Positions 13,039-48,265 of a stretch of 64,000 nt of DNA are shown in pieces. Origin of the DNA: an uncultured Alphaproteobacteria bacterium (lineage in GTDB: Bacteria > Pseudomonadota > Alphaproteobacteria > Rs-D84); assembly GCA_951801825.1 (NCBI GenBank), contig CATOOF010000001.1, positions 380,132-444,131 of the forward strand, written 5' to 3'. A program made the translations under genes and the position numbers. Each line of letters starts with the position of its first letter. Position 1 is the first letter of the stretch. The notes beneath the pieces are model-generated. The model ran no database searches. It worked only from the letters and a program-made list of their open reading frames with translations, and was not told the origin of the DNA.

Positions 13039-14103
13039 ATGTCTTCTGAAAAGAAAATTATTGCGATTGATGCCATGGGCGGGGACAAGGGTCCGGCGGC
13101 TGTTTTTGGTGGCATGAATCAGTTTTTATATCAAAACGCCGATGCAAATGTTTTTTTTAGAGTATTTGGCGACGAGAAAAAGTTGCGTAAGCTGGCGGCA
13201 AAATATCCTCGCGTTGGGCGCAATTGTGAAATCATTCATGCCCCTAATGCCATTCGTGCCACCGACAAGGTGCGCGATGTAATCCGCCATGCCCAGGATA
13301 CGTCAATGTATATGGCAATAAAAGACGTTCGTGAGGGGAAAAGTAGCGCTGTAATCAGTGCCGGTAACACGGGTGTTTTGATGTCGTTGGCGAAACTGGC
13401 GCTGAAAACGATTGACGGTATTTCGCGTCCGGCGATTACGACCATGTTGCCCTCTGGTGGCGGGGACAGTCGTGTTGTAATGCTGGATTTGGGTGCCAAT
13501 ATTCAGTGTGATGCGATAAACCTGTTTGATTTTGCCGTTCTGGGCAGTGTGTATGCCGAAAAAATAGGCAATATGCCGCGCCCGAAACTGGGGGTATTAA
13601 ATATTGGTGAAGAAGACACCAAGGGTAATGAAACCCTGCGTCATTTGAATCAGGTGTTAAGTGCGCACAAAGACGTGTTGCCGTATGAATATGTTGGATT
13701 TGTAGAAGGTACCGATATCAGCGCCGGCGTTGTCCAGGTTGTTGTTACCGACGGTTTTACCGGCAATGTTGTTTTAAAAACGGTTGAGGGTACGGCCCGC
13801 CTGATAAAGCGCGTTCTGATGGATAACTTAAAAAAGTCATGGTTGGCAAAAATCGGTGCGTTTTTCCTGATTCATGTGTTTAAGCGTCTAAAGCACAAGA
13901 TAGACCCGCGTTCATATGCCGGGGCAATGTTCCTGGGGCTAAAGGGATTTGCCGTTAAAACGCACGGTAACAGTGATGCGTTGGCGTTTGCAAACTCTAT
14001 TCGTCATGCATGCGGCCTGATAGGTGCAAATTTAAATGACATAATAGCGGCGCGCGCCCAATCGGTTTCCCAAATCCGCGAGGAATTAAAAGTCGAAGAA
14101 TAA
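13039..14103 (+). CDS. plsX: Phosphate acyltransferase PlsX
   Basis: IAIDAMGGDKGP N-terminus and overall PlsX sequence. Confidence 0.93.
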   Translation: MSSEKKIIAIDAMGGDKGPAAVFGGMNQFLYQNADANVFFRVFGDEKKLRKLAAKYPRVGRNCEIIHAPNAIRATDKVRDVIRHAQDTSMYMAIKDVREGKSSAVISAGNTGVLMSLAKLALKTIDGISRPAITTMLPSGGGDSRVVMLDLGANIQCDAINLFDFAVLGSVYAEKIGNMPRPKLGVLNIGEEDTKGNETLRHLNQVLSAHKDVLPYEYVGFVEGTDISAGVVQVVVTDGFTGNVVLKTVEGTARLIKRVLMDNLKKSWLAKIGAFFLIHVFKRLKHKIDPRSYAGAMFLGLKGFAVKTHGNSDALAFANSIRHACGLIGANLNDIIAARAQSVSQIREELKVEE

Positions 14104-14108
14104 ATATA

Positions 14109-14135
14109 ATCCCGGTCCGCCGGGATTTTTATTTG
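14109..14135 (+). terminator. Intrinsic terminator after plsX (ATCCCGG/CCGGGAT plus T-run). Overlaps the -35 of the leader A promoter.
   Basis: 7-bp GC stem plus TTTTTATTT. Confidence 0.7.
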
Positions 14136-14320
14136 CAATCTGTATCATGTCTGGTATAATTCCCATTGCATCGGGTGATACCCGGTGTGAGGTGTAACAA
14201 CCTCCAATAGTTTTAAAACTCCACAACCGGTTGGAGGGCTGTGATATATCTAAATAAACAGCACTATACTATTGTAGTTGTTAACCTCCAACCGCCCTTC
14301 ATCACGGCGGATTTTTGTTT
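14133..14320 (+). promoter_or_regulatory. Leader family copy A. Promoter TTGCAA-16-TATAAT (14133-14160), ~150-nt structured leader with a CCAACCGGTTGG hairpin, alternative antiterminator (GGTTGGAGG vs CCTCCAACC) and an intrinsic terminator (14291-14320).
   Basis: Near-consensus promoter. CCGCC/GGCGG stem plus T-run immediately upstream of the SD GGAGG of the HTH gene. X1/Y/X2 complementary segments. Homologous to the element at 25176-25365 (reverse strand) and 38318-38504. Confidence 0.6.
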
Positions 14321-14341
14321 TTCAAAAATACGGAGGATAAA

Positions 14342-14560
14342 ATGAAAACAGAACAGGAATTCGCAATTGCCTTGAAAAAAGCGATGCGCTATGCTCGTAA
14401 ACACAAATGCCCCCAGTATATCGCGCGACATATGGGACTGTGCCCCGGGGTATATTTTGCCTATGAATCAGGCGCTATAAAATTATCTGCATACCAGCTG
14501 TATGTGTTTATTCATTTAACCGGCATGGGACCGGATTTTATCACGAGTATTTATAAATAA
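14342..14560 (+). CDS. Small XRE-family helix-turn-helix protein (72 aa)
   Basis: SD GGAGG 5 nt upstream. HTH-like EFAIALKKAMRYARKHKCPQYIARHMGLCPGVYFAYESG. Paralogous to 24931..25155. Confidence 0.65.
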   Translation: MKTEQEFAIALKKAMRYARKHKCPQYIARHMGLCPGVYFAYESGAIKLSAYQLYVFIHLTGMGPDFITSIYK

Positions 14561-14647: not shown

Positions 14648-14980
14648 TTATGCGGCCATGGCGACGCCGCGTTCGGATGAACCTTCGACATCGATAATCT
14701 TTTTAGCCTCTGCGAATACCATTTCTTTTACGCGCAGCGCCAATGTTTTTGTGTCCAGTCCTTCGGCGGCAACATCGAAATTATCTGTGCGAATCTGCAA
14801 TGATACGTATGCACCCACCAGTGATGCGCGTGGCAGGTCTTCAATAGAGCGTGGGGCGTTGTTCATGCCAATCTGCAGTTCATCCGACAGCGATATAATC
14901 TGGCGTGCTTCGTTAACCCATACCGTTGTTGTCAGAACCTTGTTTAAGGCAATCATTATTTCTTTTATATTTTTTGCCAT
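14648..14980 (-). CDS. Hypothetical protein (110 aa)
   Basis: Strong SD AAAGGGGGGA upstream. Terminator hairpin CCGGCGGCAA/TTGCCGCCGG plus T-run downstream on the minus strand. The overlapping plus ORF 14658..15008 is rejected as S-rich low complexity. Confidence 0.55.
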   Translation of the reverse strand: MAKNIKEIMIALNKVLTTTVWVNEARQIISLSDELQIGMNNAPRSIEDLPRASLVGAYVSLQIRTDNFDVAAEGLDTKTLALRVKEMVFAEAKKIIDVEGSSERGVAMAA

Positions 14981-25155: not shown

Positions 25156-25175
25156 GTTTATCCTCCATATTGGTT

Positions 25176-25365
25176 TTATAAAAAACATACCGCCGTGATG
25201 AAGGGCGGTTGGAGGTTAGATACTATTCGTCATAGTCCTGCTTATTTAGGTATATCACAGGCCTCCAACCATGTTGGAGAATAATTTAACGAAGAGGTAT
25301 CTACACCTCACATTGGTAATCATCCAATGCGGTATGAATTATAACATAATAATTGCGCTTTGCAA
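25176..25365 (-). promoter_or_regulatory. Leader family copy B (reverse orientation): promoter TTGCAA-16-TATAAT on the minus strand (25338-25365), structured leader, terminator (25176-25208).
   Basis: Reverse complement aligns along its length with 14161-14320, including GTGAGGTGTA, CTCCAAC-ATG-GTTGGAGG, CCTCCAACCGCCCTTCATCACGGCGG. Confidence 0.6.
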
Positions 25366-28425: not shown

Positions 28426-28500
28426 GGTGCCGGCTGTCGGACTTGAACCAACGACCCTCTGATTACAAATCAGATGCTCTACCAGCTGAGCTAAGCCGGC
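28426..28500 (-). tRNA. tRNA-Thr (anticodon TGT)
   Basis: Reverse complement GCCGGCTTAGCTCAGCTGGTAGAGC...anticodon loop TTTGTAA...GGTTCAAGTCC...CCA. Confidence 0.88.
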
Positions 28501-38282: not shown

Positions 38283-38504
38283 GCCATAATCTCGAATATA
38301 TAATTTGGTGTGGCGCGTAATGGAAAAAACTGTTACCAGCGCGAGGCGTAGAAAACCTCAAGTACACGATCGCCTGTTGTGTTACGGGCGTTAAACTTCC
38401 AACCCGTGGTTGGAGGCGGGTCTTATATATTGAAAGGACCCGGGCAATTCATAGTGTATTGTTTTTCTACCCTCCAACCACCAATGTTTTCAGGTGGTTT
38501 TTTG
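38283..38504 (+). promoter_or_regulatory. Leader family copy C2: 17-bp palindrome TTATGGCA-A-TGCCATAA overlapping the -35, -10 TATAAT (38309-38314), structured leader with TCCAACC-CGT-GGTTGGAGG hairpin, CCTCCAACC, terminator AACCACC/GGTGGTT plus T-run (38476-38504)
   Basis: Homology to copy A in the segments AAACTTCCAACCCGTGGTTGGAGGCGGGTCTTATATATTG and CCTCCAACC-terminator. Followed by SD GGGGGAGAG and an ATG. Confidence 0.5.
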
Positions 38505-38530
38505 TTAAAGCCTAACAGGGGGAGAGACCG

Positions 38531-38809
38531 ATGAAAAAGAAAGCCGCTGAAAATGCGTTTGCGCCCGATTCCAACGAATTGAAAAGAGAAAGTGGGGTAA
38601 ATATACCGGAATCAGAATTTCCGGCGCCATTGATTTATAAACTATCAGAATTTTATCGACGCTGGCCGGATTATCCGACGGGCATTGTTGAAATAGCCAT
38701 CCTCGCGCGTATTTTGCATACTGAAATGGACAAGTTTTTACATCGGCCGCATAAACAGGTAACGCAAATATATTTCGACTGTGATGCCGCCGACAAACAT
38801 TTGGTATAA
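38531..38809 (+). CDS. Hypothetical protein (92 aa) downstream of leader copy C2
   Basis: SD GGGGGAGAG, terminated by the bidirectional terminator. Confidence 0.5.
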   Translation: MKKKAAENAFAPDSNELKRESGVNIPESEFPAPLIYKLSEFYRRWPDYPTGIVEIAILARILHTEMDKFLHRPHKQVTQIYFDCDAADKHLV

Positions 38810-40967: not shown

Positions 40968-41057
40968 GGATGGTTGGCAGAGCGGTCGAATGCGGCGGTC
41001 TTGAAAACCGTTGAGGGTGCAAGCCCTCCGGGGGTTCGAATCCCTCACCATCCGCCA
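40968..41057 (+). tRNA. tRNA-Ser (anticodon TGA), long variable arm
   Basis: GGATGGTTGGCAGAGCGGTCGAATGC...CTTGAAAA...long extra arm...GGTTCGAATCCCTCACCATCCGCCA. Followed by a terminator hairpin at 41086-41115. Confidence 0.9.
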
Positions 41058-46687: not shown

Positions 46688-48265
46688 ATGAGAATTAATA
46701 AGTCGGCGGGTTTAAACGAGTCAGAGCATCGTCTTGTAAAACTAGGCGAGAAGGTTTTTATGGGATTATGGAGTTATCCTAATCCCAAAATAAAAACCTC
46801 ATCAGGAACCCCGGAATTATGTGATTTGTTAGTTGTTTGTGGTAATAATGTACTAGTTTTCTCAGATAAAGATATCAAATTCAATGAGGATAAAGACTTA
46901 TTAGTGGCTTGGCGCAGATGGGAGCGGAAAGCTATATTAAAATCGATAAATCAGTTAAGACATGCCGAAAATATTATAAAAGATCATCCAGAAAAAATAT
47001 TATTGAATGATACAGATCCTTTTCCTTTGTCATTTCCTGCAAAGAGGGATTTAAAAATACGTTTAATATGTGTGGCAAATGGGGTAGCGGAAGCGTGTAA
47101 AAGATATTTTGGTAAAGGCTGTACAGGAAGTTTAAAATTTTCTAACTTAAACGGTTATACTCAGGTGTCAGATAAGGACTTGTCTAAGTTACCTGTTAAG
47201 GAAAGAGAAGAGTATAAAGAGAGTACGATATTCACTATAGCTGATTATGATTCATTAAAAACCTTTGTACATGTTTTTGATGATTATTCTTTCCCGTTTG
47301 TTTTACAGGAATTAGATACATTGACGGATTTCGTTAAATATTTGGAAGAAAAGGAGCGTTTTATAAGATCTGGGGTTGCGGTATGTTATACTGGCGAAGA
47401 GGATTTATTATACAATTATTTAAAAGAGTTTGATGAAGAACGCAATTGTCATACATTTGTAAATCCAAAAGAAACTAATGCAAATGTATTTATGTTTATG
47501 GAAGAGGATTGGAATTCATTTAAACAGTCCCAACAATATATTGCTCGTATAAAAGCTAACCAAAAAAGCTATTTCTGGGATCAGCTTGTTCAACATAATG
47601 CCCAATGTACATTGGCCGGTATTACTAAAATTTTTGCTACTGCGTCAGCAGACTGTGATATTGCTTTTCGGTATATGGCGCTAGAGGATCGATTGTCGCG
47701 CAGAGCATTTTCCGATAGAATGATAGCTGCAATCAGCAATTTCCCCGATAATTATACGCCAGACAATCACTATATGAGTGCATTTTTCTCTTTTGTGAAT
47801 GATGGATTATTGTACATATTTTTACAAATTCCCAAGGAAAACAACAGTTCTCATGGTGATTACTTAAAAGCTAGACGTGATAAAATGCAAATTTACGCCA
47901 ACTGTGCCAAAGCTAGATGTGAAATAGAGGGTAAGTTTGTAGACAAGGTTATATGTATTGCAACTGAGCCGATGAGAATTGTGAAAAATGTTGATATAGA
48001 CATAATGCTAATGGATATTAAAGAATGGAATACAGAACTACAGAACCATTGGGAATCGGCACGTCGAAACTTAAACATATTTAGAAAATCATTTAAAGAT
48101 CTGCAGCATGCAAAAGAAAAAGAATGGCCTGAGTCTCCGATTTTTGTGCAAAAACGAACTAAAAAGATAGGTCAAAATGATAAATGTCCATGTGGTAGTG
48201 GATTAAAATACAAGAAGTGCTGCGGAAGTGTTTTGAAACCCAAAAAACAAATACCTTACATATAA
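46688..48265 (+). CDS. NERD-like nuclease-related domain protein with a C-terminal SEC-C metal-binding motif
   Basis: N-terminus GEKVFMGLWS...ELCDLLVVCGNNVLVFSDKDIKF matches the NERD pattern (E...ExDhvvv...vfvxExK). The terminal CPCGSGLKYKKCCG is a SEC-C motif. Confidence 0.5.
   Translation: MRINKSAGLNESEHRLVKLGEKVFMGLWSYPNPKIKTSSGTPELCDLLVVCGNNVLVFSDKDIKFNEDKDLLVAWRRWERKAILKSINQLRHAENIIKDHPEKILLNDTDPFPLSFPAKRDLKIRLICVANGVAEACKRYFGKGCTGSLKFSNLNGYTQVSDKDLSKLPVKEREEYKESTIFTIADYDSLKTFVHVFDDYSFPFVLQELDTLTDFVKYLEEKERFIRSGVAVCYTGEEDLLYNYLKEFDEERNCHTFVNPKETNANVFMFMEEDWNSFKQSQQYIARIKANQKSYFWDQLVQHNAQCTLAGITKIFATASADCDIAFRYMALEDRLSRRAFSDRMIAAISNFPDNYTPDNHYMSAFFSFVNDGLLYIFLQIPKENNSSHGDYLKARRDKMQIYANCAKARCEIEGKFVDKVICIATEPMRIVKNVDIDIMLMDIKEWNTELQNHWESARRNLNIFRKSFKDLQHAKEKEWPESPIFVQKRTKKIGQNDKCPCGSGLKYKKCCGSVLKPKKQIPYI

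Follow-up and report, generated by a model that had tools for sequence, protein, structure and literature searches.

The small RNA sRNA-Xcc1 (Rfam RF02221) is known from Xanthomonas campestris, integron cassettes, and prophages. A second system of interest is the c4 RNA of phage P1. Its a1b1/a2b2 pairings and its processing by RNase P were reportedly worked out by Citron and Schuster in 1990 and by Hartmann and colleagues in 1995. The c4 immI operon of phages P1 and P7 is described in PMC8198154, and the c4-a1b1 motif was described by Weinberg et al. 2010 (PMC2864571). sRNA-Xcc1 was reported as a free RNA of 88 nt and as a trans-acting small RNA (PMC2996969).

We recovered a previously undescribed family of structured leader RNAs from the stretch of 64,000 nucleotides analyzed here (the window). 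The window contains three full copies (A, B, and C2) of a unit of ~170 nt and one divergent copy (C1). In each unit, a structured leader lies between a promoter and a terminator, and a ribosome-binding site (SD sequence) and an open reading frame (ORF) follow. An Rfam scan of the window at gathering thresholds retrieved three tRNAs only, and permissive Rfam scans added nothing but sub-threshold sRNA-Xcc1 matches. Two 9-nt segments of the leader, Y and X2, can pair with each other. Y and its reverse complement occur six times in the window, with 0.25 occurrences expected, and none of 100 shuffles reached six. The six form three Y/X2 pairs, one in each of copies A, B, and C2, at ~14.2 kb, ~25.2 kb (on the minus strand), and ~38.4 kb, respectively.

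The family contained 194 distinct units, retrieved from genome, metagenome, and viral-contig loci and from the window. Nearly all were from "Candidatus Enterousia" and related Rs-D84 gut and rumen Alphaproteobacteria. These are uncultured gut residents with genomes of less than 1 Mb. Because the search patterns behind most family sequences specified Y and X2, the invariance of these two segments is partly by design.

Copy A is on the plus strand. Its promoter (14133 to 14160) contains a -35 element, TTGCAA (14133 to 14138), a 16-nt spacer, and a TG-extended -10 element, TATAAT (14155 to 14160). In 29 of 38 related copies, a -10-like hexamer lies 33 to 34 nt 5' of a GRGG tetramer. The 5'-terminal hairpin P0 (14168 to 14188) pairs 14168 to 14176 with 14180 to 14188 in the minimum-free-energy fold, and relatives contain an equivalent hairpin of variable sequence ahead of the tetramer. 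The mini-hairpin S1 (14189 to 14204) pairs GAGG (14189 to 14192) with CCUC (14201 to 14204). Its loop is made up of a UG linker (14193 to 14194) and the 5' arm of helix P1var, UAACAAC (14195 to 14201). Position 2 of GRGG covaries with position 3 of CCYC (A-U 18, G-C 43, G.U 12, and A.C 1; Fisher p = 1.8e-8), and the pyrimidine of the linker covaries with the purine preceding hairpin H-b (U-A 41, C-G 34).

The 5' arm of P2, CAAUAGU (14205 to 14211), pairs with 14268 to 14274. Across the family, this duplex had an energy of -9.5 kcal/mol with native partners and -5.4 kcal/mol with swapped partners (p = 3e-35), and column pairs 22-175 and 23-174 covaried. The conserved 5' arm of P3, CUCCACAACC (14219 to 14228), competes for Y, and its pairing with 14232 to 14236 in copy A amounts to 5 bp (CUCCA:UGGAG). 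Y, the shared switch strand, is GGUUGGAGG (that is, GGTTGGAGG) at 14229 to 14237. The P4 hairpin (14238 to 14262) contains a covarying 5-bp stem (14238 to 14242 with 14258 to 14262) and a conserved A/U-rich loop, GAUAUAUCUAAAUAA. A hairpin substitutes for the middle of this loop in two loci (L006 and L044).

The H-b hairpin, ACUAU/GUAGU (14263 to 14278), contains the 3' arm of P2 (14268 to 14274) as its loop and inner stem. It alternates between CUAU/AUAG and CAAU/AUUG across the family (U-A 64, A-U 21). The 3' arm of P1var, GUUGUUA (14277 to 14283), pairs with 14195 to 14201 and makes a pseudoknot. All 7 of its pairs were present in 96 of 113 copies, and swapped partners mostly gave 4 to 6. 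Four of the pairs covary heavily, and a double change from C-G to G-C separates strains (L024, L025, and L027). X2, the antiterminator partner of Y, is CCUCCAACC (that is, CCTCCAACC) at 14285 to 14293 and reaches 14294 with a trailing G. Its last 2 to 4 nt are also the first of the terminator's 5' arm. The intrinsic terminator (14292 to 14322) pairs CCGCC (14292 to 14296) with GGCGG (14306 to 14310) and ends in a U-tract (14312 to 14322). The SD sequence, GGAGG (14332 to 14336), and an ORF of 72 amino acids (14342 to 14560) follow (14332 to 14560 together), with ~20 nt from the U-tract to the ATG. The ORF encodes a small XRE-like protein. The identical protein was present in 201 blocks of the assembly collection, and the contigs examined among these came from metagenome assemblies of ENA and from an NCBI MAG.

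The earlier note had recognized the alternative pairings at this locus and their overlap with the terminator, and both are real. Its placement of Y at 14239 to 14247 was 10 nt off, and X2, which it placed at 14284 to 14293, begins one nucleotide later. It gave CCTCCAA (X1) as the upstream partner of Y. This segment lies at 14201 to 14207 as given, but it is present in copy A only, with CCTCTTC in copy B and CCTCAAG in copy C2. Across the family its bases belong to the 5' hairpin S1 and to P2. Y does have two exclusive partners, and one is X2. The conserved upstream rival is the arm that immediately precedes Y (14219 to 14228), which had been mentioned only as a hairpin.

The proposed recurrence of the Y/X2 arrangement in copies B and C2 also held. 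Copy B is on the minus strand (25156 to 25343). It contains a -10 element (25343 to 25338), Y (25270 to 25262), X2 (25215 to 25207), and a terminator (25208 to 25180). An ORF encoding a 74-amino-acid HTH protein follows (25155 to 24931, minus strand). It is paralogous to the copy A ORF (36% identity, E = 1e-11). Copy C2 is on the plus strand (38299 to 38530). It contains a -10 element (38299 to 38304), Y (38408 to 38416), and X2 (38471 to 38479). Its terminator (38476 to 38499) has a different stem, AACCACC/GGUGGUU, as had been noted. A 92-amino-acid ORF follows (38531 to 38809, plus strand). With the core covariance model (R1), copy B scored 68.4 bits and copy C2 scored 48.9 bits. Searches of Pfam and NCBIfam with the three window ORFs retrieved nothing beyond weak HTH matches for copy B.

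Copy C1 (38080 to 38260, plus strand) lies directly 5' of C2 and contains its own terminator. Its Y, GGUUGGAUG, and X2, CUUCAGCC, form 7 bp including 2 wobbles, and its P3 arm has compensating changes. It scored 20 bits with R1 (E = 0.11). One related locus (L310) is a variant that resembles C1, and the locus orthologous to C1/C2 (L264) contains four tandem units.

The rival pairings covary. The ON-state helices were paired in 95.3% of cells with a covariation of 0.326, versus 0.124 when shuffled, and 0 of 500 shuffles were as high. The OFF-state helices were 93.6% paired, with a covariation of 0.293 versus 0.122. Six variant copies contain compensatory double changes in Y:X2. These are GGUUGGAGU/ACUCCAACC (three copies), GGUUGGAGA/UCUCCAACC, GGCAGGAGG/CCUCCUGCC, and GGAUUGGAG/CUCCAAUCC. 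Among 53 members picked without reference to Y or X2, Y:X2 was compensated in 5, changed by wobbles only in 4, and disrupted in 2. The compensated pairs in this sample include GGUUGGGGG/CCCCCAACC and GGCUGGAGG/CCUCCAGCC. In 110 of the 122 copies, X2 contains the start of the terminator's 5' arm and shares 3 to 4 nt with it. The terminator stem itself covaries (pair 198-220 is GC in 44 and AU in 38), and two loci (L049 and L278) show triple covariation. The loop of P4 and the junction nucleotides are conserved, and there is a tertiary pair.

P3, Y:X2, and the terminator exclude one another, and the terminator/antiterminator logic that had been suggested therefore holds. The family combines a conserved, covarying structured domain with an exclusive terminator and antiterminator, as expected of transcriptional riboswitches in general. 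The analysis establishes all of the helices, their mutual exclusivity, and their tie to the downstream genes. We initially took strict exclusivity of P2 and H-b as proven as well, and a rough geometric estimate then led us not to rely on it. By that estimate the two may coexist as a tight loop-closed pseudoknot rather than alternate. If they do, the proven exclusivity is limited to P3, Y:X2, and the terminator.

Several other candidates were rejected. In minimum-free-energy folds, the 5' GAGG pairs with CCUC of X2 at the base of an outer helix. This pairing shows no covariation beyond the shuffled expectation, and GRGG covaries with the nearby CCYC instead. A possible internal promoter in P4/H-b, TTGAAT-N18-TATAGT, has an unconserved -35-like part and a -10-like part that covaries as a stem. 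Y resembles an SD sequence, but no conserved short ORF for a leader peptide follows it in the 122 copies. A start codon is missing from 63 of them, and the stop positions are scattered. A tRNA-mediated attenuator had also been proposed. It has no T-box match, either in the window at the Rfam gathering threshold or on the leader at an E value of up to 10.

The units are closely associated with genes. An SD sequence and a same-strand ORF lie 15 to 110 nt after X2 in 152 of 183 units (83%), which leaves no space for another promoter. Tandem arrays without an intervening ORF account for 8 of the 183 units, and 23 have no obvious ORF. The 133 downstream ORFs include at least 37 XRE-type HTH proteins, 8 proteins with Flg_new surface repeats, 3 with Ephrin_rec_like domains, 2 DNA methylases, and 1 ABC exporter. 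Secreted cysteine-rich proteins are also among them, and most of the others have no family. Together they do not link the leader to one metabolite or pathway, and this mixture argues against a classical metabolite riboswitch.

We consider copy A to be, probably, a cis-acting transcription-attenuation leader, in which the rival pairings of Y allow or block the terminator before the downstream genes. It is unlikely, in our judgment, that the units are instead free-standing antisense small RNA genes of the sRNA-Xcc1 or c4 type. In such genes the terminator would merely end the small RNA, the ORFs would receive incidental read-through, and P3 would be a folding or processing intermediate. Each unit does contain its own promoter and terminator, and tandem arrays such as the four-unit locus would suit such genes. 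So would the accumulation of sRNA-Xcc1 as an 88-nt RNA (PMC2996969) and the resemblance of the core to it in both directions (30.7 and 35.1 bits; R1 retrieved 4 of 5). The complementary arms, which differ from copy to copy, are reminiscent of the determinants of specificity in P1 c4. The fixed short distance to a same-strand ORF in 83% of units is against this explanation. A plain small RNA terminator needs neither a terminator arm fused to X2 (90% of copies) nor a conserved competitor for Y. No second copy of the 5' arms that could act as a target lies downstream (-8.6 kcal/mol native versus -8.7 swapped), and no convincing trans site was found in the window. The scan of the window for trans sites retrieved only one unexplained match, at 47313.

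The energies of the rival folds bear on whether the leader switches at all. P3 (-11.9 kcal/mol) plus the terminator (-9.6) compete with Y:X2 (-17.0), a gap of ~4 to 5 kcal/mol. In a nested model that ignores pseudoknots, the OFF fold was more stable in 82 of 84 copies, with copy A nearly balanced (-38.9 versus -37.6 kcal/mol). These folding energies suggest that termination is the default state. A constitutive structured leader would use a leaky terminator, as many small genomes do, to fix low expression. It would serve as an mRNA-stability or insulator element, with rival pairings that guide folding only. The strong preference for the OFF fold and the gene set, which points to no ligand, would fit it. 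The energy gap is typical of switches, however, and the three blocks are near-invariant or covarying in more than 190 copies, while other helices drift. The triple covariation in two loci also argues for switching, and we regard a constitutive leader as improbable.

P3 forms 8 to 9 contiguous base pairs in 71 of 87 copies, with a loop of 3 to 33 nt. Its substitutions are chiefly C to U and keep G.U pairing, which is a signature at the RNA level. A DNA operator, in which the palindrome CTCCAAC...GGTTGGAG is bound by the downstream XRE-type HTH proteins and CCTCCAACC is a third half-site, would suit the inverted repeat of the arms and the many Cro/C1-type HTH genes, but we reject it as highly implausible because the arms lie anywhere from 3 to 33 bp apart and the one-sided C-to-T changes preserve RNA G.U pairing only, and the fixed orientation to the gene, the covariation of five further helices, and the presence of the same element ahead of secreted proteins, methylases, and an ABC exporter are also against it.

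Under the attenuation-leader reading, the unit would be transcribed from its own sigma-70-type promoter. P0 and S1 (GRGG:CCYC) would emerge first, then the copy-specific 5' arms of P1var (in the S1 loop) and P2. The CUCCAAC arm, Y, P4, H-b, the P1var 3' arm, and X2 would follow. The leader would end with the intrinsic terminator, whose 5' arm starts in X2, and then the SD sequence and ORF. In the OFF state, the local hairpin P3 (CUCCAAC) would hold Y, leaving X2 free for the terminator to form. In the ON state, Y:X2 would close a compact core of four helices, the other three being P4, H-b, and the P1var pseudoknot. It would also capture the AACC of the terminator arm, so that RNA polymerase could read into the gene. 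The leader would be OFF by default, and some input that stabilizes the core or destabilizes P3 would give read-through. Our best guess for this input is a protein or small ligand that recognizes the conserved P4 loop and junction.

A broader reading is offered tentatively, as possible rather than probable. The family could represent a new class of ON-type attenuators that respond to a signal, whether as riboswitches or through a protein, and that use a pseudoknotted RNA of the c4/sRNA-Xcc1 type to control a genome-wide regulon. By extension, the widespread sRNA-Xcc1 family would act in cis as a regulatory leader with the a1b1/a2b2 logic of c4, and not as a simple trans-acting small RNA. If so, the regulon would span Cro/C1-type regulators, DNA methylases, and surface proteins in gut Alphaproteobacteria with reduced genomes. 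Extrapolated from three full copies and one divergent copy in 64 kb, a genome of less than 1 Mb could contain tens. One RNA device before many regulator, methylase, and surface-protein genes may account for a significant share of gene regulation in Rs-D84 bacteria.

The core of the leader is a sub-threshold relative of sRNA-Xcc1. With the Rfam model, copy A scored 30.7 bits against a gathering threshold of 53, and a single 13.5-kb scan retrieved no match for B or C2 at an E value of up to 10. Among eight related loci, only L034 matched (35.1 bits). The positive controls (L226, L229, L235, L237, and L239) scored 59 to 84 bits. Reciprocally, R1 retrieved 4 of 5 genuine sRNA-Xcc1 loci among 99 decoy loci with the same inverted repeat (22.6 to 28.1 bits; E = 8.5e-4 to 0.023). 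The alignments and covariation of the window family show the sRNA-Xcc1 architecture. Both contain a 9-bp closing helix, GGnnGGnGG/CCnCCnnCC, around two hairpins, the first with AAUA-rich loops. In both, a short strand precedes the 3' arm of this helix, and an RCC tail comes after that arm. Genuine sRNA-Xcc1 loci likewise encode, upstream, one arm in a hairpin loop and another arm; these pair with the short strand and the loop of hairpin 2. Both families lie 5' of small DNA-binding or regulatory genes. Unlike sRNA-Xcc1, the window family has AU-rich helices, a conserved competitor arm for Y, and an X2 fused to an intrinsic terminator. In 4 of 5 sRNA-Xcc1 loci the 5' arms recur downstream, at the ribosome-binding site, but in the window family they do not. 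By this comparison, loci annotated as sRNA-Xcc1 in Xanthomonas, Xylella, and prophages may mark cis-regulatory units 5' of KilA-N, Bro-N, and SymE genes.

Genuine sRNA-Xcc1 loci are similar to the c4 antisense system of phage P1. A search of 14100 to 14360 with the Rfam c4 model (RF01695) gave no match at an E value of up to 10. The leader is like c4 in that one transcript contains both a structured RNA and short segments, specific to each copy, that are complementary to two exposed regions of that RNA. It also shares the association with repressor- or antirepressor-type genes. Its hypervariable complementary arms are an analogue of the c4 a1/b1 pairing with a'/b'. The combined upstream pairing had an energy of -15.0 kcal/mol with native partners and -8.4 kcal/mol with swapped partners (p = 6.5e-40). 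A c4-type a2/b2 target at the ribosome-binding site was not found in the downstream 140 nt (-8.59 kcal/mol native versus -8.66 swapped; p = 0.61). The output of the leader is an intrinsic terminator, whereas that of c4 is occlusion of the ribosome-binding site.

The leader also resembles ON-type transcriptional riboswitches, with their conserved junction and loop nucleotides and a tertiary pair. As in the pbuE adenine riboswitch, the helix that closes the junction shares its 3' strand with the 5' arm of the terminator, so a stabilized junction would prevent termination. It differs from these riboswitches in its nonmetabolic gene set, its extra competitor arm for the 5' strand, and its very high copy number for a genome of less than 1 Mb. 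As in the antisense-RNA-mediated attenuation of the plasmids pT181 and pIP501, RNA-RNA pairing would decide between terminator and pre-emptor in a leader. The regulator in those plasmids is a counter-transcript from the opposite strand, whereas the complementary segments of the leader are all on one strand. The family is a well-defined RNA switch supported by covariation, with three-way strand competition, two pseudoknot helices, and a tertiary pair. It connects the poorly understood sRNA-Xcc1, the classical P1 c4 antisense system, and terminator-based attenuation, which were formerly treated apart.

The leader feature is real, it recurs, and strong structural selection acts on it. Three full units (copies A, B, and C2) are present in the window. 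Each contains a switch strand, Y (GGTTGGAGG), and a downstream partner, X2 (CCTCCAACC). The window contains six matches to the Y 9-mer or its reverse complement, with 0.25 expected, and 0 of 100 shuffles reached six. These matches are three Y/X2 pairs, in copy A (plus strand), copy B (minus strand, ~25.2 kb), and copy C2 (~38.4 kb). In copy A, Y lies at 14229-14237 and not at 14239-14247, where the earlier note had placed it. The upstream CCTCCAA that the note called X1 is at 14201-14207, as it had said. X2 is at 14285-14293, and the CCGCC/GGCGG terminator stem is at 14292-14296 and 14306-14310, with a T-run next. All three copies contain a TG-extended -10 promoter (in copy A, TTGCAA-16-TATAAT at 14133-14160), an intrinsic terminator fused to X2, a GGAGG-type Shine-Dalgarno (SD) sequence, and a small ORF of 72, 74, or 92 aa. 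The ORFs of copies A and B are paralogous (36% identity, E = 1e-11), and that of copy B has weak HTH_3 and antitoxin-like matches. The distance from U-tract to ATG in copy A is only ~20 nt, and transcription of the ORF must therefore pass through the terminator. An unassigned 110-aa ORF (14648-14980, minus strand) is convergent with the copy A ORF. It keeps the same position in all related contigs examined and has no family assignment.

The leader anatomy was derived by comparative analysis of an alignment of 87 leaders (A2); coordinates are those of copy A. The P0 hairpin (14168-14188) is followed by the S1 mini-hairpin (GRGG:CCYC, 14189-14192 with 14201-14204), whose loop contains the linker YG (2 nt) and the 5' arm (7 nt) of the helix P1var. 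The P2 5' arm (14205-14211) comes next, followed in many copies by an additional hairpin plus an A-rich linker. Y is preceded by the P3 5' arm, CUCCAAC (14219-14228). After Y come P4, a covarying 5-bp stem with the conserved loop GAAUA...RAAUAA, and the H-b hairpin (RCUAU...AUAGU), with the P2 3' arm as its loop. The 3' end consists of the P1var 3' arm, a single A, X2, the terminator, the SD sequence, and the ORF.

P1var was fully paired in 96 of 113 copies, while swapped partners mostly gave 4 to 6 of 7 pairs, and four of its pairs covary heavily. One P1var pair changes from C-G to G-C on both sides between strains of the window's species (comparison loci L024, L025, and L027 versus the window). 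The arms read GUAAGAAC...GUUCUUAAC in those loci (2840-2950) and GUAACAAC...GUUGUUAAC in the window (14195-14283). S1 also covaries (A-U 18, G-C 43, G.U 12, A.C 1; Fisher p = 1.8e-8). For P2, the mean duplex energy was -9.5 kcal/mol for native and -5.4 kcal/mol for swapped partners (p = 3e-35). The H-b stem alternates between CUAU/AUAG (64) and CAAU/AUUG (21). A mutual-information scan added a pair between the linker Y and an R 5' of H-b (U-A 41, C-G 34). In L006 (9538-9621) and L044 (7125-7212), both on the minus strand, a regular hairpin substitutes for the middle of the P4 loop, with GAAUAA and AAAUAA remaining as an internal loop; this makes P4 a long hairpin whose A-rich internal loop is conserved. 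A pairing between the 5' GAGG and CCUC in X2, present in minimum-free-energy folds of copies A, B, and C2, was discarded because it had zero covariation.

Three helices use overlapping nucleotides: P3 (CUCCAAC paired with Y), Y:X2, and the terminator (AACC-RCC.../...GGYGG-UU). P3 forms 8 to 9 contiguous pairs in 71 of 87 copies, and nearly all of its variation consists of C-to-U changes facing a G; its arm varies jointly with Y and X2 in L049 and L278. Y:X2 is perfectly paired in the canonical copies, most of which were retrieved with Y and X2 fixed. Among copies found by nhmmer, with Y and X2 unconstrained, the compensated changes are GGUUGGAGU/ACUCCAACC (three copies), GGUUGGAGA/UCUCCAACC, GGCAGGAGG/CCUCCUGCC, and GGAUUGGAG/CUCCAAUCC. 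A metagenome sample of 53 members was selected through P4 and H-b only. It contained 42 canonical Y/X2 pairs, 4 in which an A-to-G change on one side leaves a G.U pair, 5 compensated pairs (including GGUUGGGGG/CCCCCAACC and GGCUGGAGG/CCUCCAGCC), and 2 disrupted pairs. The terminator begins within X2 in 110 of 122 copies, 103 of which use 3 to 4 nt of X2. Its stem has a median of 7 bp and covaries (GC 44/AU 38 at one pair, CG 78/UA 7 at the next). This pairing evidence therefore upholds the proposal that Y chooses between two CCUCCAA-type partners, one of which pre-empts the terminator. The upstream partner is the P3 arm and not X1, whose bases form, family-wide, the S1 3' strand and the start of P2; CCTCCAA is missing there in copies B and C2. 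With that detail corrected, the logic of a terminator/antiterminator switch is supported.

Mean energies were -11.9 kcal/mol for P3, -9.6 kcal/mol for the terminator, and -17.0 kcal/mol for Y:X2. Computed for nested structures only, with the read-through pseudoknots uncounted, the terminator state had the lower energy in 82 of 84 leaders (mean difference, 12.5 kcal/mol). Copy A, with a 5-bp P3, is nearly balanced (-38.9 versus -37.6). P3 is transcribed, and is able to fold, before X2 exists. From the energies and this order of synthesis, we infer that termination is the default and that read-through would occur on a signal.

The window was located by exact-protein look-up in human-gut metagenome assemblies and one NCBI MAG. 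A pattern scan of species-representative genomes retrieved at least 118 loci; among the matches listed, nearly all are "Candidatus Enterousia," "Rickettsiales bacterium," or alphaproteobacterial gut or rumen MAGs. They represent the order Rs-D84, in which genomes are mostly <1 Mb (PMC12306168). A metagenome scan using a pattern without Y or X2 added 69 loci, and nhmmer identified 194 distinct leader units across the collected loci. An SD sequence and a same-strand ORF (at least 50 aa, starting 15 to 110 nt past X2) follow 152 of 183 assessable units. Another unit follows 8, and neither a unit nor an SD sequence with an ORF follows 23. The leader is probably a cis-acting attenuator. The main rival, a free-standing c4-like small-RNA gene, is unlikely.

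The downstream genes are mixed. XRE-type HTH proteins account for at least 37 of 133, with proteins bearing Flg_new surface repeats (8), Cys-rich Ephrin_rec_like proteins (3), DNA methylases (2), an ABC exporter (1), and an outer-membrane beta-barrel (1) also present. Signal-peptide-like N-termini were found in 67 of 142 downstream proteins. Three IMG/VR contigs labelled viral (L005, L011, and L012) carry typical units beside a phospholipase-D-like nuclease and a DNA methyltransferase-like gene, and these units precede a secreted protein or ABC exporter gene. These contigs may be pieces of Rs-D84 chromosomes or mobile elements. No U-tract follows X2 in L011, L047, and L093, the leaders of ABC exporter genes.

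For the input to the attenuator, the conserved unpaired nucleotides are the natural places to look for a protein or ligand site: those of the P4 loop and the YG linker, the R at the junction, and the lone A preceding X2. A DNA operator is disfavoured by the P3 arm spacer of 3 to 33 nt, substitutions that keep G.U pairing, and the unrelated genes downstream. A leader-peptide mechanism is disfavoured because a conserved short ORF was not found, and a metabolite riboswitch because the downstream genes are non-metabolic. The tRNA-mediated control that had been suggested is disfavoured too, as Rfam scans gave no T-box match. Three tRNA genes (824-894; 28428-28500, minus strand; 40968-41054) were the only Rfam matches in the window at gathering thresholds.

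Copy C1 (38080-38260) is a divergent unit with its own terminator directly 5' of C2. It carries GGUUGGAUG as Y, a P3 arm with compensating substitutions, and a weakened X2 (CUUCAGCC). The unit falls in a subtype with the S1 hairpin GCGAGA/UCUCGC, as in L031, L054, L085, and L100; L310 has a similar Y/X2 variant. L264 (224-990) contains four tandem units, each with a promoter and terminator, upstream of an ORF orthologous to the C2 ORF. In unit 2 of this array, the 5' arm is a match to the unit 1 core and not to that of unit 2, so unit 2 may be recombinant. The two 5' arms of copy B, TAGATAC and TTCGTTAAAT, are repeated exactly, 10 nt apart, at 47313-47342, inside a 525-aa ORF (46688-48265). 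These repeats may be a chance match or a trans site.

sRNA-Xcc1 (RF02221) was the only Rfam family to come near. Copy A scored 30.7 bits and L034 35.1, against a gathering score of 53; by this curated threshold the leader family is outside RF02221. In the Rfam alignment, the 9-bp closing helix of sRNA-Xcc1 corresponds to Y:X2 and its two hairpins to P4 and H-b. Five genuine sRNA-Xcc1 loci from viral contigs score 59 to 84 bits (L226, 3330-3700; L229, 10760-11000; L235, 1190-1420; L237, 1700-1990, minus strand; L239, 1560-1810). R1, a covariance model of the Enterousia leader core, recovered four of the five (22.6 to 28.1 bits, E = 8.5e-4 to 0.023) in a test set including 99 decoy loci that share the GGCCGGGGG...CCCCCGGCC repeat. 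R1 also detected four more loci (30 to 32 bits) with the same core architecture, a third branch (L233, 635-723, minus strand; L155, 9636-9727; L183, 13590-13679; L170, 4426-4515, minus strand). At the gathering score, the Rfam sRNA-Xcc1 model gave no match on L155 and L183, the two of these tested.

The upstream elements of the Enterousia leaders are also present in the genuine sRNA-Xcc1 loci. The loop of a GGG...CCC hairpin (CUCAAAAG or CUAGCAAC) pairs with the strand 5' of the 3' closing arm, and seven further nucleotides pair with the hairpin 2 loop. In four of the five loci, both upstream arms recur at the ribosome-binding site of the gene that follows, which encodes a KilA-N or Bro-N domain in three of the four. 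In published notes, symE and an ORF6N gene lie downstream of sRNA-Xcc1. The arm arrangement resembles the a1b1/a'b'/a2b2 layout of the phage P1 c4 antisense RNA. The c4 RNA works with a1b1 and a2b2 sites. The phage P1 c4 operon has been described (PMC8198154), and a c4-a1b1 motif has been listed (PMC2864571). The complementary upstream arms and c4-like layout suggest that sRNA-Xcc1 is part of a cis-regulatory unit. Enterousia leaders keep the c4-like upstream arms (native, -15.0 kcal/mol; swapped, -8.4 kcal/mol; p = 6.5e-40). The downstream arm repeat was not found in them (native, -8.6 kcal/mol; swapped, -8.7 kcal/mol); they have the P3 competitor and the fused terminator instead.
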